This document shows positions 1 to 12,317 of a stretch of 12,317 nucleotides of DNA, in pieces. The translations under genes and the position numbers were made by a program. This DNA is from a virus (taxonomy: Duplodnaviria; Heunggongvirae; Uroviricota; Caudoviricetes). Below the pieces are notes generated by a model, which had not been told where the DNA came from, searched no databases, and saw nothing but the letters and a program-made list of their open reading frames with translations. Each line of letters opens with the position of its first letter. Position 1 is the stretch's first letter. The stretch covers positions 1 to 12,317 of IMG/VR virus record IMGVR_UViG_2802429246_000010; one strand, 5' to 3'.

Positions 1-1632
1 ATGGTAACTCGGACAATGCAACAAAAGTATGATCGTGTTTTATCTGGCGAATCCCATCCATTCCCTGGCATATACGAGGCGGTTTCCGAACAACTCCTTT
101 TGCTCATCTTTAAGGCTCGTCAGCTATATCAGAATCCAGAATATCGCCCCTGGTTTGAAGAACAGCACAGAGTTCTCTCTGCATTACGTGCTAATACAGA
201 GCTCTTGAGAATATTTAGAGAACAAAGAAACGCGGAAGAACCAGAGCTTATTATTAAAGAATCTACATTACCCCTACTCACTAATTCTAATCTTACAGAT
301 GCGCTTAATATTATGTGCCATTTATACAATGGTTTTGATGAAGGAAATATCAGTCTGAAAACCTGGGGGGCGATGCAAGAGGTACAGACAACATCAACCT
401 TTATCAGCCCGGGACCGAGAACCTGGAAAACACCTGAACTGGCAAAGTTTGTAGGAGATGATTTATTTAATATTCTGACTGAATGTAAAGCCTGGAGTTC
501 ACCAATTCCAGCAGAAACCCGACAGGGCTATTGCCATCAGGATCTGTCTGTTGCACACTCCTGCACCTCAGAGTTACTGGCACACCTGAATCAATACCAT
601 GAAATTGATGAATCAGCAATACTTGCCAGAGTTATTGGTATGACGGTTAACGGATTCTACAAGAAAAATAATACAGACCTCCCAGAATGGCTATCCCCCT
701 TTAAAGAGGAACATAAAATATTCAGAGATTGTCTGGAGCAAAAGACCGAGGATGTAATCAGACTGAAAGAACAACTGTTGAAAACAGGACGTTCAGAATT
801 CGTGAATAATTTGTGTCGGGTCGCCAACTGGTATGAAATTAAGTCAATATACGATGAATATGTCCGTCTTTATGCCAATGAAATCATTGGTTGGTTCAAC
901 AAAACCATGGAATATTTTAAACCAACAGATTTTATCCGATATACATGGAAATTCGCAACAGTTACTCCAGGTAAAGAGACAGAAACCAAGCATACAACTG
1001 CATGGGAAAAGGATTATTGCCAGATAACTATACAACGTGATGAACTTCTGAGATTGATTCACACGAATACCCTTCAGGATGCAGTAATTTATCTTTGCCA
1101 TTGTCTGCAGAAGAAATACAAGAAATCATCCCAAAATGAGATAGAGTTTCCAGGAATAAAACCTCCGGCATCAGAGAGTGAAATTAATATAACAGATAGT
1201 TTTGAATTTTATTCTCTCCTGGAGCTCAGTAAAGATAATGAGAGACGGCTGGAAACATTTCAAAAATGGTATGAAAAAAATAAAGTTTTGTTAGAAAGTC
1301 ATAAACAAAAACGAACAGAGAAGATTGACGTTGCCGTACGACTTGTAGGGCTGAAAGCCTATGATCTGCATGAAGGGATTCCGGATAGTCCAAAACGAAA
1401 AGTTAAAGATGGCATAAATGAAGACATCAAAGCCGATACCAGTTTACGCCTGCCAAAGACAAATATAAGTGATACGTCGCTAAACCGTTATCGCCGCACT
1501 GTTAAGGAGATTATCAATAACGAAATCGACGCATTCCTGTTGGAACAGAAGAAAAAAAATAAAAGATTTCCCTACAGTGAAGATAGAGATGTGATTCGAC
1601 CTTTATGGGGAAAATGCCTGACCGGGCAGTAG
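1..1632 (+). CDS. hypothetical protein (543 aa), AT-rich accessory/cargo gene; ATG sits at position 1 so the true 5' end may lie beyond the window
   Basis: Uninterrupted 1632-nt ORF with coding-like amino-acid composition; noticeably more AT-rich than the rest of the window; followed by a hairpin terminator; no motif I can recognise by eye. Confidence 0.5.
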   Translation: MVTRTMQQKYDRVLSGESHPFPGIYEAVSEQLLLLIFKARQLYQNPEYRPWFEEQHRVLSALRANTELLRIFREQRNAEEPELIIKESTLPLLTNSNLTDALNIMCHLYNGFDEGNISLKTWGAMQEVQTTSTFISPGPRTWKTPELAKFVGDDLFNILTECKAWSSPIPAETRQGYCHQDLSVAHSCTSELLAHLNQYHEIDESAILARVIGMTVNGFYKKNNTDLPEWLSPFKEEHKIFRDCLEQKTEDVIRLKEQLLKTGRSEFVNNLCRVANWYEIKSIYDEYVRLYANEIIGWFNKTMEYFKPTDFIRYTWKFATVTPGKETETKHTTAWEKDYCQITIQRDELLRLIHTNTLQDAVIYLCHCLQKKYKKSSQNEIEFPGIKPPASESEINITDSFEFYSLLELSKDNERRLETFQKWYEKNKVLLESHKQKRTEKIDVAVRLVGLKAYDLHEGIPDSPKRKVKDGINEDIKADTSLRLPKTNISDTSLNRYRRTVKEIINNEIDAFLLEQKKKNKRFPYSEDRDVIRPLWGKCLTGQ

Positions 1633-1640
1633 ATCACTGA

Positions 1641-1676
1641 GGGGATAACAGCCCGGTTATCCCCTGTTTGTTCTGC
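1641..1676 (+). terminator. rho-independent terminator downstream of the 543-aa ORF
   Basis: 9-bp stem GGGGATAAC (1641-1649) / GTTATCCCC (1656-1664) with 6-nt loop, followed by TGTTTGTTCTGC. Confidence 0.5.
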
Positions 1677-1718
1677 TTCAGGTTGCCAGAGCTCTAGGAA
1701 CACGAGGCAATCGGCAAA

Positions 1719-2315
1719 TTATGCGGCTTTTCCATTAACAGATTCGGCCACAAGAACGACAGTGTGTTTGTTTCGCTCAGGATGTTCACTCCAGATTTCT
1801 GATTCCGGGATGCTTTCCCCGTCATAACTGATCCGTTCGCCATCAAACGGGTAATACCGTGCGGAATCAGTATCTAAAATAAACACCTTCAGATTCGTTG
1901 AACGACGCGCAATATGCTGCCAGAGAGCTTTTCCTCCTTCATATTGCTCGTTATCACTTAATAGTACAACGCCCGCTTTTGTGACTATCGTTTCATAAAC
2001 AAACGTTGCAAGACCAACATCGCGTACAGCTCCATCGACAACAATCCCTTCAATCTGAGCAACATCCTGTTCTTCCCAGAATTTCTGGACAAACACGCCT
2101 TCAAGTCGGGGACGACGCTGAAGCTCCAGAGTGGCAACAACCTTATGGCGAACATCACCATCAATAACAGAAGGTGCAGCTTCGATTACCGCAGCAAACG
2201 GAGTCTTTGGATCCCAGATGATCTGGTAAAGCACGCCCTGAATAGTTACTCCATCCAGTATCGAAAAACGACGGGCTACAGTAGCAGGGGAGTAAGACAT
2301 TGGAATTACAGCCAT
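1719..2315 (-). CDS. hypothetical protein (198 aa from ATG at 2313-2315; the track ORF extends to an upstream GTG at 2345)
   Basis: ATG at 2315 is preceded on the minus strand by AGAGGGGA about 9 nt upstream; coding-like composition; about 100 bp downstream of the integrase on the same strand; no recognisable domain. Confidence 0.5.
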   Translation of the reverse strand: MAVIPMSYSPATVARRFSILDGVTIQGVLYQIIWDPKTPFAAVIEAAPSVIDGDVRHKVVATLELQRRPRLEGVFVQKFWEEQDVAQIEGIVVDGAVRDVGLATFVYETIVTKAGVVLLSDNEQYEGGKALWQHIARRSTNLKVFILDTDSARYYPFDGERISYDGESIPESEIWSEHPERNKHTVVLVAESVNGKAA

Positions 2316-2444
2316 TTTAGAATCCCCTCTGAGTAATACAGGCACGAAAATTTACCTCAATAATTATAGTAAACAATACCAGAGCCAGGCGCATCAACAA
2401 TACTCATCAATTGTACTCAAGTCGTACAACGATCAGGAACGCCC

Positions 2445-3761
2445 TCACCTTCTACCAAACAGATTAACAACATTATTACCTGTCTGCTGTTGGTGGTTAT
2501 TAACCCGGTCCTCCCAGATCTCAAGTGCTCTGCGTTTTTCTGGCAAATAATCGTATCGATCATAATGTTTTGAACTGACATCGTTCAACGCATGATTTTG
2601 AATACGATCGCGGATTTCCTTACTGATTCCAGCTTCTCCCATTAACGTTTTACAGGTCCGACGTAAGTCACGTGCTGTAAAAATTTTAAAGTCAGGATTA
2701 CAAGCCCGGAAATACATGATAGCGCGAGCCAGACTGTCCGTACGAACCGGACGCTTACCATTAGTCGAAAGCGGGAAAATGTAAGGGCTCGATTTTTCTT
2801 TTGTTAACTCCTGCACACAAGATAATTCCTGTAATGCTGATTCAGTCAACGGTATCAAATGTTCTCGCTTATTTTTAGAGACATCCGCAGTCACCAGCAG
2901 CGTTTTTTGCTGAAAATCAACATCACACCACTGACTGGCGATCATTTCGAAGGGACGTTGCCCCCCGGTATAGATACAGAATCGGATCAAATGTTGCATC
3001 AATAATCCAACGTTGGTTGCTTCAGCAAAATGTTCCATTAGAAAACGCAACTCTTCGAGTGTCAGCCAGGTGTCACCGACTTTTTCAGCAGATGACTGTT
3101 TCGGTATCACTGATACCGGATTGGCCTCCAGCCCAAAAGTAATCCCTACACTTGTGTTCATCGGATCGTTATCAGCTTTCAGACCATAGTTAAATGCAGC
3201 CATCAGGTAAGAACGGATCCGGTTAGAGTGAACCACTGCACCGCGCTGAATGATCCCGGCCAGGATATGTTTAATCTGTCCGGAAGTCACATCTTTAGCT
3301 TTAGTCTCACGGGGGATCACTGTATAGCATTCATTTTCAAGGCGTTTCAGAACATCCTGCCATGTTCTCTTATTATCAATTTTCATTTTGTTAACATAAC
3401 CATGAATCAATGCTTCAAATGAGCCCTGTGATTGATGGAGTTGTATCCGCTGCTGTTCTGCAAGCTGTTGTCGCTCCAGTTCTGTCTGGGGATCCTTTCC
3501 TTCAATGAGCCAGGCACCATACTTTTTTGCCAGTTCATTCGCTGTAGCCAGTTTCATCTCAGGCCATATACCCAATTGAATGAATCTTTCTTTTTTCCCT
3601 TTTTCCACGTAATAGCGGAAATAGAAAATTTTGCTGCCAGAAGACTGAACTTTGATGCCAAGTCGTCCAGTGCCACGTTGAGAACTGTTGCTCCAGACAT
3701 AGAACGATGTCTTTTTTGCTTTCAATGCTCGGATAGCTGTTTCAGTTAGATTGACGGCCAT
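2445..3761 (-). CDS. int: site-specific tyrosine recombinase (phage integrase), P4-type with N-terminal arm-binding domain
   Basis: 438 aa; N-terminus (LTETAIRALK...GSKIFYFRYY...ERFIQLGIWPEMKLATA) fits the P4-integrase N-terminal domain pattern; C-terminus has the R...H..R...Y arrangement (ARDLRRT...HALND...HYDRYDY); AAGAGG RBS about 5 nt upstream of ATG at 3761; lies next to a tRNA-derived att core. Confidence 0.9.
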   Translation of the reverse strand: MAVNLTETAIRALKAKKTSFYVWSNSSQRGTGRLGIKVQSSGSKIFYFRYYVEKGKKERFIQLGIWPEMKLATANELAKKYGAWLIEGKDPQTELERQQLAEQQRIQLHQSQGSFEALIHGYVNKMKIDNKRTWQDVLKRLENECYTVIPRETKAKDVTSGQIKHILAGIIQRGAVVHSNRIRSYLMAAFNYGLKADNDPMNTSVGITFGLEANPVSVIPKQSSAEKVGDTWLTLEELRFLMEHFAEATNVGLLMQHLIRFCIYTGGQRPFEMIASQWCDVDFQQKTLLVTADVSKNKREHLIPLTESALQELSCVQELTKEKSSPYIFPLSTNGKRPVRTDSLARAIMYFRACNPDFKIFTARDLRRTCKTLMGEAGISKEIRDRIQNHALNDVSSKHYDRYDYLPEKRRALEIWEDRVNNHQQQTGNNVVNLFGRR

Positions 3762-5304: not shown

Positions 5305-5688
5305 TCAACCAATCAACTTATAGCGACCATCCCGTGCATTGCGGCGTACACGCTCAATCTTGAGGCATAGCGCCGCATCTGGCTTTTTTGGGACAGGTAC
5401 GCGGCAATATTCAGAAGCTCGAGGAATATTGTTTATCCAGTCGATCACTTCGCTTAAATACCAGGCCTTACGCCCTTCCGTAACCTGTACGCGTTCGGGG
5501 AACTCTCCGCGAGCCTCAAGGTTTAGCAATGTGCGACGGCTAAGGGTAGTAAGTTCCATCACCTGATTCATATCAACAAGGCGTTCACTTAAACGCATTT
5601 TGTCAGCAATAGCCTTTAATTCCTCTACTGCTGGATCCGGATACATCATTTCGGCAATTGGCTTAAGGTCATTGTAATGATTCTGCAT
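5305..5688 (-). CDS. AlpA/Vis-family HTH DNA-binding protein (127 aa, with an N-terminal extension of about 30 aa)
   Basis: Core RLVDMNQVMELTTLSRRTLLNLEARGEFPERVQVTEGRKAWYLSEVIDWINN fits the AlpA pattern; AGGGGGA RBS 5-6 nt upstream of ATG at 5688; stop lies about 57 bp from cosN. Confidence 0.7.
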   Translation of the reverse strand: MQNHYNDLKPIAEMMYPDPAVEELKAIADKMRLSERLVDMNQVMELTTLSRRTLLNLEARGEFPERVQVTEGRKAWYLSEVIDWINNIPRASEYCRVPVPKKPDAALCLKIERVRRNARDGRYKLIG

Positions 5689-8357: not shown

Positions 8358-10481
8358 TTAATCTTCTGCCTCAGGCTGGAACATCAGCACGTAAAAAACA
8401 TGCTGCTTCCCCCCAATTTTGCCGAGAGCCTTTTTCTTGTAACGGCGATCGTTACCCGCTTCCAGCATTCCGGCAGCACTCAACGCGCGGGCAAAGTGGG
8501 ACGGGTTAAATCCCTGTGCGATCTCCCCCTCAAACACATGAGGAAACGTGTAAAAACGGAACTCATCATCTTCATTTCTGATACTCCCCTTTCTGTATCC
8601 GGCAAGGTCTTTAATCGGTAAATCACGTTCATCACTGTTTGGGTAAGGAAGGTATCGACTGAACCCGAACGACGACAAAAACGCCTCAGCCTGTTCAACC
8701 ATCTGTTTAAATTCCCTGTTACCCGTGCCGAACTCCTTCACCCAGGCATTAAAGTTATGCTGTATTGCGTCCCGGCATTCCTGCGCGGCCCAGCCAGTTA
8801 CATGACCGGAAAGCACAAGCGCGGCCTCCAGTATGGCGAAACGCTCACCCACGCGGTGGACCTGCTCGCCGTAGCTCTCCGGTATCAGGTTGCGCCACCG
8901 TTCGCGGCATTCCCTTACCGTATCCTTTGCCTCCTGCTGGTGGCCTGCCAGCCATTTAACCCACTCACGACCCGCTGCCCCGTGATTTTCTGTCCAGGCA
9001 TCCTTTAACGCGTCTGCGTGCGCCTTTCCGGTGCTGTATTCGTGAAAGTGCGTGGCTTTTTCCATCGGAACGTTAAGCAGGCGGACAAGCTGCCCCGCTT
9101 TGACTTTTATCCCCTCCGTTTTGAGGAATGTCTCAACGTCCATTTCTCCGGTGCTGATTGCCACCGTGCGCCAGTGTTTTATCTCCCGGTTGCCGCCGTC
9201 CTTCGCCCCCTGTAATTTCCCGGAACCGTTAAACAACGTATAGGCTGACGTGGACACCTCCCGCGCGTTTCCGGCCTGGCCTATTTCATCCAGGGGTAAC
9301 AGCCCGTCGTTGTGCGCCTCTGCCTCGTTAGCGATACCTAACGCTGTGCCGTACCAGGTCAGCCGTTGTGCGTCCGGCTCTCCCCATAAACTTGATGCGA
9401 TGTTCTGCGTGGTGGTTTTCCCTGCCGATGACTGTTCGAAAAGATGTACCCCGAAGCCGTCAGCACCAACAAGGCCAATCAAAGGTGCTGCCAGTGACGT
9501 GGCAACACCCAGCATCATGGACGGATTGCCACCAGCCAGCCGCGCCACGCAGTCGCGCCAGCCCTCCGACGTACCCGCAACCGAATAGCCATTAACAGTG
9601 GCACTTTTTCCGGTAAACAGGATCGGTTTTTCAGAATCACCAATGATTGAGCCGTCCGGCATGATATACGCGCCAAAATGCCAGCCCGTTGTTGTGCTTA
9701 GCTGCCATTCCTCATGGCTTCCGCTTAACTGCATCCAGTCAGCCAGGATAGCCCTGTATTTGCCGTTTGTTGTCACGTTCAGCCCGTGATCTTTAAGCAA
9801 CCGCCAGCCGTCACGGTCGCCAATGCCACCACACGGGATCGCCATTGTGATGACTTCATGGTTTGCTAATTTTTTCCAGCGCATCACGCGGTAATGCTCT
9901 TTACCGATCGTCCCTGTTCCCAGTAGTTCAAGCGGAGAACATAACCACGTCTCAGGCCGGATAATTTCGCCTGACTGCTTATCCACTTTGGGCGTTACCC
10001 AGAAAACACCATCGACGCGACTTTCAACGCGGGGCTTTAATTCATCATCCTGATAGCATGGCTCTTTTTTCTTTACAGGCAGTTCAACTACCTTTTTCTT
10101 TTCCGCCTGCTCTGCCCGTTCACGTTCCAGATATTCACGCCAGTTCTCCCGTTTCTGGCTGTGCATTCCTTCAGGGTAATAATCAGCATCCCTGACACCT
10201 GCCGCTGCCAGTTTCTGCCCGATGGTATTAACAAGCCCCGGACGCAATAACCCCGCCTGATAGAGACGCACGCGATAGCGTCCGTCCGGTACGATTTGCA
10301 GGTTGTCCAGTTCGGCAAGTTGTTGCTCTCCAAGCCAGACAGGAGGCACGTTATCGCCAGCCAGTCGCCCGTCCTGTTCCTGCCACTGCTTCGCATGTGC
10401 CCACGCATCACTACCCGCAAAAATGATGACTTCCGTCATTTTGTCACGTGGCTGGTGTTTTAAATTTGGCGCTTTTTTCAT
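8358..10481 (-). CDS. replication initiator, primase/helicase-like P-loop NTPase (707 aa from ATG at 10481)
   Basis: Large ORF with Walker A-like SSAGKTT and Walker B-like LLPLDEIG motifs; GGAGAGAG RBS upstream of ATG at 10481; start overlaps the stop of the upstream gene (ATGA); cognate iterons immediately downstream. Family assignment is by context and motifs, not by confirmed homology. Confidence 0.8.
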   Translation of the reverse strand: MKKAPNLKHQPRDKMTEVIIFAGSDAWAHAKQWQEQDGRLAGDNVPPVWLGEQQLAELDNLQIVPDGRYRVRLYQAGLLRPGLVNTIGQKLAAAGVRDADYYPEGMHSQKRENWREYLERERAEQAEKKKVVELPVKKKEPCYQDDELKPRVESRVDGVFWVTPKVDKQSGEIIRPETWLCSPLELLGTGTIGKEHYRVMRWKKLANHEVITMAIPCGGIGDRDGWRLLKDHGLNVTTNGKYRAILADWMQLSGSHEEWQLSTTTGWHFGAYIMPDGSIIGDSEKPILFTGKSATVNGYSVAGTSEGWRDCVARLAGGNPSMMLGVATSLAAPLIGLVGADGFGVHLFEQSSAGKTTTQNIASSLWGEPDAQRLTWYGTALGIANEAEAHNDGLLPLDEIGQAGNAREVSTSAYTLFNGSGKLQGAKDGGNREIKHWRTVAISTGEMDVETFLKTEGIKVKAGQLVRLLNVPMEKATHFHEYSTGKAHADALKDAWTENHGAAGREWVKWLAGHQQEAKDTVRECRERWRNLIPESYGEQVHRVGERFAILEAALVLSGHVTGWAAQECRDAIQHNFNAWVKEFGTGNREFKQMVEQAEAFLSSFGFSRYLPYPNSDERDLPIKDLAGYRKGSIRNEDDEFRFYTFPHVFEGEIAQGFNPSHFARALSAAGMLEAGNDRRYKKKALGKIGGKQHVFYVLMFQPEAED

Positions 10482-10777
10482 TTCTGCTCTCTCCACGCGG
10501 CAATCATGTTTTTCAGTTCCTGTAGTTTTTTATCCACATTCACACGTGACACATGGTTATTTCTGGAAAGCGGGATTTCCCGCCTGAATCTGCTAATAAA
10601 GATCTCCACGTTCAGCGAACTATGAAATGAATAGCCATCACGAATAAAATACACACGGTCAAACATTATCGATTTTACTGTTACTCTGTTGCCGTTCTTA
10701 TCCCGATAAATAGCGCCGGGGATAATTTTGGGATGTGCATAACCGCTGGCAGTCAAGCCAGATAAATACGTTCTCAT
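10478..10777 (-). CDS. hypothetical protein (99 aa), translationally coupled to the replication gene
   Basis: ATG at 10777 with GGGGA upstream; stop overlaps the primase start codon. Confidence 0.55.
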   Translation of the reverse strand: MRTYLSGLTASGYAHPKIIPGAIYRDKNGNRVTVKSIMFDRVYFIRDGYSFHSSLNVEIFISRFRREIPLSRNNHVSRVNVDKKLQELKNMIAAWREQK

Positions 10778-10783
10778 GATTAT

Positions 10784-11104
10784 TTATCCCCGATTTGAAT
10801 CAGTATTCGCTTTCTTTATGGCATTTAATGCATCTGTGGCATTTTCAATGGTGCACCGTAACGAAATATCAAAATGTCCAAGCATTGCCAGTAACAAACC
10901 GATATTACCCATATCAATGCGCATGGCCTTTTCGTCATAGTCCTCATTTTCTGACGCATGCCACATCAGGCTACCAATTGACGCAACGGCCATTGATATA
11001 TTGTCAGTCGCCCCATCCGCAGCGGAATAAACCTTTTTAGCAATATCATGCTCACAGTTAAAATGCGGATTAATCAGGTACTGGTAATTTGACATATCAG
11101 GCAT
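10784..11104 (-). CDS. hypothetical protein (106 aa)
   Basis: ATG at 11104 with AGGGGG RBS 7 nt upstream; coding-like composition; start overlaps the end of the upstream small gene. Confidence 0.6.
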   Translation of the reverse strand: MPDMSNYQYLINPHFNCEHDIAKKVYSAADGATDNISMAVASIGSLMWHASENEDYDEKAMRIDMGNIGLLLAMLGHFDISLRCTIENATDALNAIKKANTDSNRG

Positions 11105-11300
11105 GGCACACCCCCTGACGAATACGGGCGGCGAATACCATCACGCAGCCAGCCGGGGATTGCTGGCGTGCTTCCTGTTCGCTGGTGGCCACGATGGTAA
11201 TCACACGCGGTTTTGCGGCGCTCAGGGCGATAAAACGCCAGGCGAATTTATTCAGGTTGTGCGAATCCCGCCCTTGCGGGTGTATGGTATGATTTCTCAT
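11097..11300 (-). CDS. small protein (67 aa), possibly Icd-like (P4-type host cell division inhibitor family); first gene of the leftward operon
   Basis: ATG at 11300 with GAGG 6 nt upstream; MRNHTIHPQGRDSHNLNKFAWRFIALSAAKPRVITIVATSEQEARQQSPAGCVMVFAARIRQGVCHA; the FAWRF...EAR...FAAR pattern recalls Icd-like proteins (from memory, unverified). It is the only coding-like stretch of the otherwise implausible 334-aa track ORF. Confidence 0.45.
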   Translation of the reverse strand: MRNHTIHPQGRDSHNLNKFAWRFIALSAAKPRVITIVATSEQEARQQSPAGCVMVFAARIRQGVCHA

Positions 11301-11337
11301 AGCTACCTCGATACTCTCGTTATCGTTGGTGGTTAGA

Positions 11338-11383
11338 AGCCCTGCGAGTGGTAACGACACTTGCGGGGCTTTGTTTTTTGTTG
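11338..11383 (+). terminator. hairpin plus T-tract (terminator-like, plus-strand orientation) in the divergent regulatory region
   Basis: 11-bp stem AGCCCTGCGAG (11338-11348) / CTTGCGGGGCT (11360-11370) with two G-U pairs, 11-nt loop, followed by TTGTTTTTTGTTG. Confidence 0.3.
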
Positions 11384-11396
11384 CACTTACTGTTAA

Positions 11397-11440
11397 TGTA
11401 CGTACGTAATATTGATGATAATAGGAGTTACGTACGTACA
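11397..11440. promoter_or_regulatory. twin operator: two copies of the self-complementary 10-mer TACGTACGTA (13-bp inverted repeats TGTACGTACGTAA / TTACGTACGTACA) 30 bp apart
   Basis: Copies at 11399-11408 and 11429-11438; the second lies between an AGGAG (11423-11427) and the ATG of the RHH gene; a TAATAT -10-like hexamer sits between the two copies. Confidence 0.5.
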
Positions 11441-11631
11441 TGTCAACATTAAAGCGGGATAAATCACCACGCGGCGAGGGATGGTCGCCGACATTCCAGA
11501 TACGAATTAGCAAAGAACTACGCCAGCAAGTAAACGAGGCAGCAACCGCCGATGGCCTAACCCTCGGCAATTGGTTTAAAGAATTAGCTCGTGCCGAACT
11601 AAAGCGACGTGGCATTGAACCTAAAGGCTGA
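11440..11631 (+). CDS. ribbon-helix-helix (CopG/Arc-like) DNA-binding regulator (63 aa)
   Basis: FQIRISKELRQQVNEAATADGLTLGNWFKELARAEL fits a beta-strand/helix/helix RHH pattern; the gene begins directly after the palindromic operators and is divergent from the replication operon. Confidence 0.55.
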   Translation: MSTLKRDKSPRGEGWSPTFQIRISKELRQQVNEAATADGLTLGNWFKELARAELKRRGIEPKG

Positions 11632-11634
11632 TGT

Positions 11635-11760
11635 ATGACTGAAAAGCAGACCGATAACAAACTTTCTCTACCAGAGAATAAACCAGCAGGCTTCTTACCA
11701 AGAAAAATCCTTGATGAGATCAAACGCCGCCAGCGGCGCAAGGCCAAAGAGCTGGAGTAA
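11635..11760 (+). CDS. small basic ORF (41 aa), not in the supplied track
   Basis: ATG 4 nt after the RHH stop with AAGG upstream; MTEKQTDNKLSLPENKPAGFLPRKILDEIKRRQRRKAKELE; plausible but too short to judge by composition. Confidence 0.3.
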   Translation: MTEKQTDNKLSLPENKPAGFLPRKILDEIKRRQRRKAKELE

Positions 11761-11817
11761 CCATCACCAGCGCCGTGGTGCGGTGAACTGTGGCGCACAG
11801 GGTTACAGGTATCTACG

Positions 11818-11997
11818 ATGACTGACAAATCATTAAAGAAATTATCCTCATCCAAGAAAAAACAACGCAAAAATGCGGTAAACGAACATGAACCGGAGAG
11901 ATTCGCACCATGTGCGTTTATCCTTGAGAAGTACCTTAAAGAGTATTCTAGGAAAATACGCTCATTGCAGGCATGGCAGCGAATCGAGCCAGACTGA
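11818..11997 (+). CDS. small basic ORF (59 aa), not in the supplied track
   Basis: ATG at 11818; MTDKSLKKLSSSKKKQRKNAVNEHEPERFAPCAFILEKYLKEYSRKIRSLQAWQRIEPD; N-terminus resembles the 41-aa ORF (MT-D/E-K); weak RBS. Confidence 0.25.
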   Translation: MTDKSLKKLSSSKKKQRKNAVNEHEPERFAPCAFILEKYLKEYSRKIRSLQAWQRIEPD

Positions 11998-12107
11998 TAG
12001 CATTGCCCACCAGCCAACAACCTGGTATTCTGGATATGCTCAAGTTTAGTGTTATGCCACTGGCGGCCCTCTGCGGTCGCCTTTGTTTTATGTGCCATCA
12101 CTCCCCC

Positions 12108-12317
12108 TTACACCGTCTGCGTTCTGCGAGTGGATGCAAGATAAGCATCGAGATCAGTGCGCATATACAGCACTTTGCGCCCCAGCTTATGGAAAGGGAT
12201 TTTTACCTTGCCAGTACAGGCCCAGTTCGCCAGCGTTTGATTGTTAACGCCAAGGTAGGCAGCAGCTTCAGCACGTGTAAGGCGGTCAGTTGATAAATCA
12301 GATTTCTTTAAATTCAT
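12108..12317 (-). CDS. excisionase/AlpA-family HTH DNA-binding protein (69 aa; start codon at the window edge, so it may extend upstream)
   Basis: LTRAEAAAYLGVNNQTLANW...GKVKIPFHKLGRKVLYMRTDLDAYLA matches the excisionase-type HTH pattern; position and orientation suggest an int-alpA-type pair with an integrase beyond the window edge. Confidence 0.7.
   Translation of the reverse strand: MNLKKSDLSTDRLTRAEAAAYLGVNNQTLANWACTGKVKIPFHKLGRKVLYMRTDLDAYLASTRRTQTV

Follow-up and report, generated by a model that had tools for sequence, protein, structure and literature searches.

The best-supported model for the control region of this E. coli phage satellite is silencing of its early leftward operon in two layers, in which a small ribbon-helix-helix (RHH) protein would act at the operon promoter, P_L, and an antisense RNA on the translation start of the Icd-like gene that heads the operon. 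Taken as a whole, the explanation by an RHH repressor, two sites, P_L and an antisense RNA is in our view likely to be correct, judging from the comparison of related loci. Both the position and the promoter geometry of the RHH module appear to fit repression. From these features we infer binding, repression, expression of the RNA and the way in which induction overrides the repressor.

The window, i.e. the whole 12.3-kb stretch of DNA that was analysed, is a phage-inducible chromosomal island (PICI) of the classical EcCICFT073 type, because its gene order is the same as that of EcCICFT073. The latter, the prototype Gram-negative PICI, was located at NC_004431.1 1,377,930-1,388,654, with the order int, alpA, two small opposite-strand genes, Icd-like gene, DUF4222, primase, SSB, capsid and decoration, and the window matches this order. 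An alpA-position regulator, a primase replication module and a packaging-hijack module were all found in the conserved arrangement, and the integrase is next to the counterpart island of strain 06-00048. In E. coli strain 06-00048, the counterpart of 11250-11700 is 99.8% identical over the tested stretch and belongs to a near-identical island, with the integrase at one end and a tRNA-Ile past the other end. The genes and signals surrounding the control region of the window are as follows.

12108-12317, minus strand: HTH_17/excisionase-type gene at the alpA position, running in the same direction as the leftward operon and convergent with the RHH operon.
12062-12091, plus strand: terminator-like hairpin and T-run, found by the window scan at the end of the rightward RHH operon.
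11818-11997, plus strand: 59-aa ORF downstream of the RHH gene, of the conserved family phrog_21027.
11635-11760, plus strand: 41-aa ORF downstream of the RHH gene, with a C-terminus in common with the CFT073 regulator.
11440-11631, plus strand: gene of the 63-aa Arc-like RHH protein, the presumed repressor, with the beta-strand PTFQIRI at residues 17-23.
11097-11300, minus strand: Icd-like gene (match with E = 2e-18), head of the leftward operon, with the Shine-Dalgarno sequence GAGGT at 11309-11305.
8358-11104, minus strand: rest of the early leftward operon, consisting of a 106-aa ORF, the DUF4222 protein and the DUF927 primase-helicase, assigned by domain matches and ordered as in EcCICFT073.

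Further to the left are genes for SSB, a lambda E-type capsid protein, a D-type decoration protein, an AlpA-domain protein and a Nu1-like protein. The alpA-position protein is a different allele from that of EcCICFT073, and the window scan revealed no strong minus-strand terminator behind its gene. Judging from its sequence, the 41-aa ORF is probably the remnant of a CFT073-type regulator gene, and its presence suggests a past exchange of the regulator module, since it shares its C-terminus with the CFT073 regulator. A 77-aa ORF on the plus strand at 11103-11336, antisense to the Icd-like gene, had no family match and was discarded as spurious. When the leader and operator region was translated in the Icd-like frame, Pfam detected neither Phage_ASH nor any other family, and the annotations 'ash family protein' or over-long Icd-like protein that relatives carry on this DNA are probably artefacts of a 334-codon open frame.

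The window contains TACGTACGTA in exactly two places, both near the start of the RHH gene (11399-11408 and 11429-11438), and the two copies form the centres of a perfect 14-nt inverted repeat, ATGTACGTACGTAA at 11396-11409 and TTACGTACGTACAT at 11428-11441. Allowing one mismatch yielded no extra match in the window (0.16 expected), and at least two hits were obtained in 3 of 200 shuffles; the sites are commoner than chance predicts. The right copy adjoins the ATG (11440) and extends into the AGGAG of 11424-11428. The original prediction had named two self-palindromic 10-mers here, and both are indeed exact copies within the inverted repeat. Their spacing of 30 bp, or three helical turns, on the other hand, is true only in the register of TACGTACGTA, which exists here only because the E. 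coli sites extend a (TACG)n run, whereas the conserved cores are about 34 bp apart. Likewise, of the interval 11338-11440 that had been read as a regulatory switch, the right part does hold the putative operators, while 11338-11379 was not recognised for what it appears to be, the terminator of an antisense RNA with a G+C-rich hairpin and a T-run. The two sites are therefore described here by their conserved cores.

11396-11409, no strand assigned: putative left operator O_L, ATGTACGTACGTAA, with the core GTACGTAC at 11398-11405; with respect to the leftward promoter it is placed at about +2 to +16, and its position is fixed in 60 loci.
11428-11441, no strand assigned: putative right operator O_R, TTACGTACGTACAT, with the core GTACGTAC at 11432-11439; it fills the spacer of P_L and adjoins the RHH start codon.

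A scan of one genome per species resulted in 61 loci across Enterobacterales, and the comparison set comprised 60 distinct loci, among them the window and four relatives from E. coli. Throughout these 60 loci the conserved unit is an 8-mer core (GTACGTAC in the window), two copies of which are placed 33-35 bp apart, start to start, while the DNA between both sites diverges freely among relatives. In the window the core spacing is 34 bp and, as in the other loci, the right core directly adjoins the start codon; elsewhere in the window, additional GTACGTAC sites were not found above chance. Two observations on the sites count against the model: a spacing of 34 bp corresponds to a non-integral number of helical turns, and in some loci with the PTFQIRI strand there is one site only or the right site has diverged. 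Modules of the GTACGTAC type are rare, with 24 of 5426 complete E. coli genomes having one. Across relatives, the cassette of RHH gene, operators and RNA is coupled to varied downstream genes, and tblastn with the neighbouring genes of the window gave few matches in the 61 related loci. The phage collection contained zero DNA matches and only 5 protein matches; some of the latter are probably satellites, among them a 15-kb Pasteurella record that we take to be one.

The sequence of the core follows that of the presumed DNA-contacting beta-strand of the protein, a pattern first seen in two E. coli strains. Loci encoding the strand PTFQIRI carried GTACGTAC in both copies in 39 of 53 cases, and all seven loci with another strand (7/7) had another core, the same in both copies. 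The following pairs of beta-strand and core were observed.

Beta-strand PPFHMRI: core GTGTACAC.
Beta-strand PIFSVRL: core GTATGGAC.
Beta-strand PMFNVRI: core GTATAGAC.
Beta-strand PMLPIRI: core GTATATGC.
Beta-strand PQFKMRI: core GTGGCCTC.

The varying strand positions 18 and 20 align with Gln9 and Asn11 of Arc, which contact bases, and the invariant arginine aligns with Arc Arg13. In this RHH family at least six putative operator specificities were found, with several others for regulators of the YlcI/YnfO type. As the protein and its sites are tightly linked, the co-variation could partly reflect the shared inheritance of one module; linkage could explain some of the correlation, but not why two sites lying apart have changed in concert to one and the same new sequence. 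The comparison therefore supports the view that the twin sites are operators of the adjacent RHH protein.

To the extent that a predicted structure can tell, the 63-aa protein is accepted as having an Arc-like RHH fold. In the AlphaFold2 model (mean pLDDT 75) the basic N-terminus is disordered, residues 18-24 are extended and residues 25-37 and 42-56 form helices, which gives the beta-alpha-alpha fold of ~45 residues that is typical of RHH proteins. In a Foldseek search of the PDB, the first 25 matches were all RHH proteins, as were most of the top 50, and the best was P22 Arc (1myl) with a probability of 0.98, a TM-score of 0.85 and an rmsd of 1.6 A over 44 columns, although at so small a domain size the Foldseek E-values are non-significant. 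A profile of 17 homologues searched against the PDB also found P22 Arc as the best match (E = 0.22), with PTFQIRI aligned on Arc PQFNLRW, and the best PHROGs match was phrog_228, 'Arc-like repressor' (E = 1.8e-4). No sequence match to a curated RHH family rose above its threshold: the Pfam-type matches to the C-terminal region of HicB (17.6 bits, cut-off 21), DUF6290 (14.2, cut-off 27), Arc (12.2, cut-off 20.4) and YlcI_YnfO_N (20.3, cut-off 30), as well as those to MobA and RelB, were all sub-threshold, though every one of these weak matches indicates a single fold. The label 'HicB antitoxin' given by PGAP and Pfam was rejected, as the protein is too short (63 residues) and its sub-threshold HicB match covers residues 18-46 only. 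The protein belongs to an uncharacterised family, and the arrangement is one of its own.

What the two sites surround is a predicted promoter of the leftward operon.

11418-11446, minus strand: predicted sigma-70 promoter P_L, with the -35 TTGACA at 11446-11441, a 17-nt spacer, the -10 TATTAT at 11423-11418 and a start near 11411.

P_L agrees with the consensus at 11 of 12 positions and was the sole strong promoter that the scan found in the region. Its -35 lies, as the reverse complement, inside codons 1-3 of the RHH gene. Of 58 distinct relatives, 56 have TTGACA, and 50 have a TAnnnT -10 following at 16-18 nt. Codon 2 of the RHH gene was TCA in all 58 cases of serine (58/58), and the first base of codon 3 was always A, regardless of whether Thr, Ile, Arg or Met was encoded. 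As far as codon usage can tell, conservation of the -35 exceeds coding needs, being kept at synonymous sites of codons 2-3. The -10 is bracketed by the two sites, the right one being in the spacer and the left one at ~+2 to +16, and this predicted layout is the classic geometry of repression by occlusion. In 11380-11439, no sigma-70 promoter for the RHH gene reached the threshold of the scan, which counts against the model, and GATAAT at 11417-11422, a candidate -10 for the RHH gene picked by eye, was dismissed as it is not conserved.

These results bear on where the sites had been thought to act. The original prediction placed them over the promoter and ribosome-binding region of the RHH gene; their overlap with the AGGAG and the ATG stands, but the decisive feature is that they bracket the -10 of the leftward promoter. 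That they are operators with an RHH regulator on one side is supported by their fixed positions in 60 loci and by cores that follow the beta-strand, and that they face a leftward operon headed by the Icd-like gene is borne out by the comparison and the promoter geometry.

The same layout was found with other regulators. In EcCICFT073, the divergent gene encodes a YlcI/YnfO-type protein of 59 aa, between which and the RHH protein of the window BLASTP found no similarity, and two direct repeats of AGGTGTGGCCCAC are located 23 bp apart. Read by eye, the operon strand of EcCICFT073 has TTGACG-18-TATAGT; one copy of the repeat occupies the spacer and the second comes shortly after the -10. A promoter directed at the operon was likewise read in an O157 island (L071), again with a repeat in its spacer and another shortly after its -10. 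Three E. coli islands with unrelated-looking YlcI/YnfO-type regulators (L071, L072 and L074) each contain three copies of a motif of their own. A fourth E. coli island (L073), encoding a distant RHH homologue, has two copies of ATGGTACGTACCAT at a distance of 33 bp, in which the core is again GTACGTAC.

We considered whether the RHH protein could be purely autoregulatory, or the antitoxin of a toxin-antitoxin pair, in which case P_L would be non-working and transcripts of the leftward operon would come from another source, such as read-through out of alpA. The start of the RHH gene is itself covered by the right site, PGAP calls the homologues 'HicB family antitoxin', the alpA-position gene is co-directional with the operon and has no strong minus-strand terminator behind it, and AlpA is required for the induction of EcCICFT073 (PMC6092414). 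However, the protein has 63 residues only and its HicB match extends over 29 residues at 17.6 bits against the cut-off of 21. Family searches detected neither HicA nor any other toxin family in the ORFs neighbouring the RHH gene, and the downstream genes vary among relatives. Moreover, self-regulation alone needs neither a TTGACA kept at synonymous sites nor a -10 at 16-18 nt in 50/58 relatives, and the module is always found opposite a leftward gene with a conserved leader. We therefore regard this explanation as unlikely.

The 14-nt inverted repeat could also act as RNA, as a hairpin in the rightward transcript whose stem would include the RHH start codon and whose loop would include the Shine-Dalgarno sequence, giving translational control instead of, or besides, operators. 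The plus strand of 11390-11447 folds at -20 kcal/mol (z = -3.9), a read-through transcript from an upstream promoter would hold both arms, and three of the four classes with a non-palindromic core (L010, L029 and L052/L053) have inverted copies. In the fourth, L051, both copies of the asymmetric core GTGGCCTC point the same way; EcCICFT073 also has direct repeats, and the O157 and CUVET20 islands mix direct and inverted ones. In most classes each site is palindromic or nearly so, which is needless for a hairpin between arms, and in Pectobacterium-type loci the complementarity of the arms ends at the ~10-bp core. Furthermore, the core changes track the presumed DNA-contact residues of the protein, and the leftward mRNA would hold one arm only. 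A hairpin in place of operators is thus rather improbable, but since an arm-to-arm hairpin is thermodynamically possible it may add translational control. Finally, that the repeat is a functionless chance product of a (TACG)n microsatellite-like run, as its 4-nt period and the two hits in 3/200 shuffles with one mismatch might suggest, is contradicted by the comparative data and has a negligible probability, as the copies keep fixed positions in 60 loci of many genera while the spacer diverges, and non-repetitive cores such as GTATGGAC and GTGGCCTC take the same places in other classes.

Returning to the model of operators for an RHH repressor, a second element was found between the operators and the Icd-like gene.

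11285-11293, plus strand: predicted extended -10 promoter element TGGTATGAT of a plus-strand RNA, within the first Icd-like codons; across 40 diverse loci the hexamer shows little or no variation at its T, A and final T, though the leftward gene differs.
11299-11379, plus strand: predicted structured RNA of ~80 nt, with hairpin 1 at 11303-11332, hairpin 2 at 11336-11372 and a U-tail at 11373-11379.

The predicted ~80-nt RNA is fully complementary to the Icd-like gene at its Shine-Dalgarno sequence and start codon. Leftward of the operators, the plus strand of relatives keeps TGn-TAnnnT, the leftward start codon in reverse complement, a small hairpin with an anti-Shine-Dalgarno sequence, GGT(T/C)AG and a G+C-rich hairpin, usually followed by a U-run. 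These leader features persist in front of different first leftward genes, which are Icd-like in the window and several relatives and unrelated in L051, where the protein is presumably SymE/AbrB-like. The two hairpins are more stable as plus-strand RNA than as the complement, in 38/40 and 40/40 loci, because of G-U pairs; in the window, 11299-11381 folds at -40.1 kcal/mol (z = -7.4) and the complement at -21.9.

RNAalifold on MAFFT alignments recovered hairpin 2 partially or not at all owing to indels, and this was resolved by a structure given by hand and a covariance model built from eight sequences. The search with this model resulted in 42 matches, at most one per locus, all on the strand of the RHH gene and nearly all at the expected place, EcCICFT073 included. 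In the covariance alignment, 95.4% of the cells were paired, compared with 75% in shuffles and 31-52% when the partners were slid, and both-sided changes were seen in 18 of 21 pairs; as the alignment was fitted to the structure and the loci are related, these statistics are optimistic. The element matched 857 of 5426 complete E. coli genomes (~16%), among them EcCICFT073, whose copy is nearly identical to that of the window. A search of the whole window against Rfam, including C4, sar, CopA and Sok, at E <= 1 gave nothing near 11299-11379 on either strand and a spurious match to a eukaryotic lncRNA only, and an identity with Esr41 was rejected, as Esr41 lies in SpLE1. Having a putative promoter of its own, conserved structure on one strand, an intrinsic terminator and complementarity to a translation start, the predicted element is read as an antisense RNA that would act in cis where translation of the first gene of the operon begins. 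In the Pectobacterium group the U-run is absent and the RNA would run on into the RHH gene; therefore the same promoter may also supply the RHH mRNA, and in relatives without the U-tail the RNA is probably the RHH mRNA leader.

According to the model, one Arc-like RHH dimer would bind each of the two GTACGTAC-core sites, and with both sites occupied RNA polymerase would be excluded from P_L. We infer that the 63-aa protein would in this way repress the Icd-like/primase operon, so that the Icd-like, DUF4222 and primase genes would be silent during integration, as would the SSB, capsid and packaging genes, provided that they form a single transcription unit. The RHH protein probably also limits its own synthesis, because the right site covers the RHH ribosome-binding site and start codon. 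As a second layer, transcription from the extended -10 at 11285-11293 would give the ~80-nt RNA ending at the hairpin and U-run of 11336-11379, and this RNA would block the translation of leaky leftward transcripts. Read-through of the terminator may yield RHH mRNA, in which case two promoters would face each other across ~110 bp.

For induction, the published evidence concerns EcCICFT073, the only island of its type to have been studied, in which AlpA is an activator that is required for transfer and induction and is itself induced by helper phages (PMC6092414). The authors of that study call the existence of a repressor unclear; none was described, and the published model is one of activation by AlpA (PMC6092414). 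Since overexpressed AlpA alone induces EcCICFT073 (PMC6092414), any repressor must be one that AlpA can override. That a helper phage would have to relieve the repressor, as the original prediction supposed, is a conjecture for this island. Speculatively, transcription of alpA could both silence the RHH gene and enter the operon, because alpA is co-directional with the operon, convergent on the RHH gene and without a strong terminator behind it. No literature linking PICIs to AlpA antitermination, an RHH repressor or an antisense RNA was found. In later surveys these small genes are listed as HicB antitoxins or 'prophage-associated' accessory genes (PMC13612085).

More broadly, and quite tentatively, the small divergent RHH-type genes that separate alpA from the Icd-like gene might, along with their operators and the antisense RNA, be the missing immunity system of Gram-negative PICIs and related satellites. 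They would silence the island and define immunity types, and induction by AlpA would override them, for instance by antisense transcription from alpA through the repressor gene into the operon. The analysis provides a testable set of candidates, namely a repressor, its operators, the controlled promoter and a companion antisense RNA, all of which are present in EcCICFT073 with a different regulator allele. The natural pairs of strand and core could serve for the study and engineering of RHH specificity and as orthogonal switches in PICI-based delivery vehicles.

Several known systems resemble parts of this arrangement. In the immI region of phage P22, a small RHH repressor acts in or over a strong early promoter within a compact divergent control region, and the sar antisense RNA acts on the ribosome-binding site of ant. 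The window would share with it both the small RHH repressor and the short cis-antisense RNA over a ribosome-binding site, that of ant in P22 and of the Icd-like gene here. Arc is the best sequence and fold match of the window protein, yet the likeness goes no further than the fold (E = 0.22). An Arc tetramer occupies a single 21-bp operator made up of two half-sites side by side, and arc itself heads the operon under its repression, whereas the window has two separate sites 34 bp apart flanking the -10 and a divergent gene for the presumed repressor, and the element is a satellite instead of a phage.

Plasmid pMV158 controls its replication gene dually, by the RHH protein CopG at the promoter and by the terminator-ended antisense RNAII against the translation start region. 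The dual control by RHH protein and antisense RNA would be alike, and CopG was among the fold matches of the window protein. On the other hand, copG is co-transcribed with repB while the presumed repressor of the window is divergent, the replicon is of another type and there is no detectable sequence relationship. In immI of phage P1, icd stands at the head of an operon and the small C4 RNA masks its translation start, so that both systems have an Icd-family gene heading an operon that is, or here would be, controlled by a small RNA. C4, however, arises by processing of the same transcript and has repeated sequences as its targets, and the C4 family of Rfam gave no match to the window at E <= 1. 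In coliphages 186 and P2 the lytic and lysogenic promoters are placed face to face, with transcriptional interference in 186. Given read-through into the RHH mRNA, the window would resemble them in having convergent promoters that overlap by ~110 bp, and interference would be possible, but a strong terminator is situated between its two promoters and the repressor family is unrelated.

Among satellites, the Stl and Rpr repressors are larger and of other DNA-binding types, and their relief by a helper-phage protein has been demonstrated. What the window has in common with SaPI Stl and Rpr of Gram-positive PICIs is a repressor gene, here a presumed one, divergent from the satellite replication and packaging operon (PMC6092414). 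EcCICFT073 and the window are alike in gene order and in the antisense-RNA element and differ in the regulator, the operators and the alpA-position allele, and the published model of EcCICFT073 has neither a repressor nor an antisense RNA. By analogy, the kind of device is familiar from Arc and sar of P22 immI and from CopG and RNAII of pMV158, and here it is situated in a class of satellites for which no repressor has been described.

The RNA/operator control cassette upstream of the Icd-like gene is evidently attached to differing downstream genes. In a Kluyvera island (L051), this cassette is followed by a first leftward gene (2084-2374) whose 96-aa product is unrelated to the Icd-like protein and is presumed, from the look of its sequence, to be SymE/AbrB-like.

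The operators and the RHH (ribbon-helix-helix) homologues also vary among the related loci. The PTFQIRI strand of the presumed repressor is encoded in L054, L063, and L065, whose sites were read in the region about 60 nt ahead of the RHH start. When the left core was compared in L054 and L063, GTACGTAC was found to be retained in both, while the right site was GTCCATAC or GTTCATAC, a core of the type carried by the PIFSVRL class. GTCCATAC is present in L065 as well. The sites of these three loci are hybrid or decaying operators. A distant RHH homologue with the strand KKNIRFE and the C-terminus LRKEGIEPKG is encoded in E. coli STEC313 (L073, 985-1100), where it is preceded by two copies of ATGGTACGTACCAT placed 33 bp apart. 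The core in this strain is the same GTACGTAC, yet the contact residues are different (Lys, Asn, and Arg).

Read in the frame of the Icd-like gene, the minus strand remains open over 334 codons (window 11097-12101), a stretch that takes in the RHH operon and the operators as well as the RNA element. In the relatives, PGAP called parts of this frame either an 'ash family protein' pseudogene or over-long Icd-like proteins, and both calls are probably annotation artefacts. The Pfam scan of the translated leader in this frame matched no family. The stretches of the relatives listed for the open frame are:

L005, 1234-1692
L004, 1348-1611
L073, 715-1515

The names given to the Icd-like protein itself disagree. 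The protein encoded at 11097-11300 received the NCBIfam name 'host cell division inhibitor Icd-like' (E = 2e-18), whereas the PHROGs families in which it falls carry the label 'transcriptional repressor' (phrog_6196, E = 1e-42); both names are putative for this protein.

The following features were found at the left end and in the packaging module of the window, and opposite the RHH gene:

1-3761, left end: a 543-aa ORF, a 208-aa ORF, and a tyrosine integrase gene (2445-3761)
5305-5688, minus strand: 127-aa Phage_AlpA-domain protein (PF05930; phrog_2790, 'excisionase and transcriptional regulator')
11584-11602 and 11538-11550, minus strand: a pair of weak hairpins resembling terminators, antisense to the RHH gene

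No Pfam family was assigned to the 543-aa and 208-aa ORFs. Strain 06-00048 carries a near-identical island, but its left end is different: there, a terminase gene is interrupted by an IS21 element. Positions 1-3761 of the window may represent cargo or a neighbouring element.

The 127-aa protein, whose gene lies between a decoration gene and a Nu1-like gene, is the second AlpA-type protein of the window besides the product of the alpA-position gene at the right end. Transcripts of the latter gene heading for the Icd-like/primase operon would have the two hairpins in their path. What makes these hairpins interesting is that the AlpA protein of Pseudomonas aeruginosa acts as a processive antiterminator (PMC9371919).

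The following reading frame lies downstream of the RHH gene:

11635-11760: 41-aa ORF with the C-terminal end EIKRRQRRKAKELE

In EcCICFT073, the prototype Gram-negative PICI, the YlcI/YnfO-type regulator has a matching C-terminus (GEIKRRQRRKAKEQE). From this resemblance, the ORF looks like a leftover of a CFT073-type regulator gene, the front part of which has been replaced by the RHH module.
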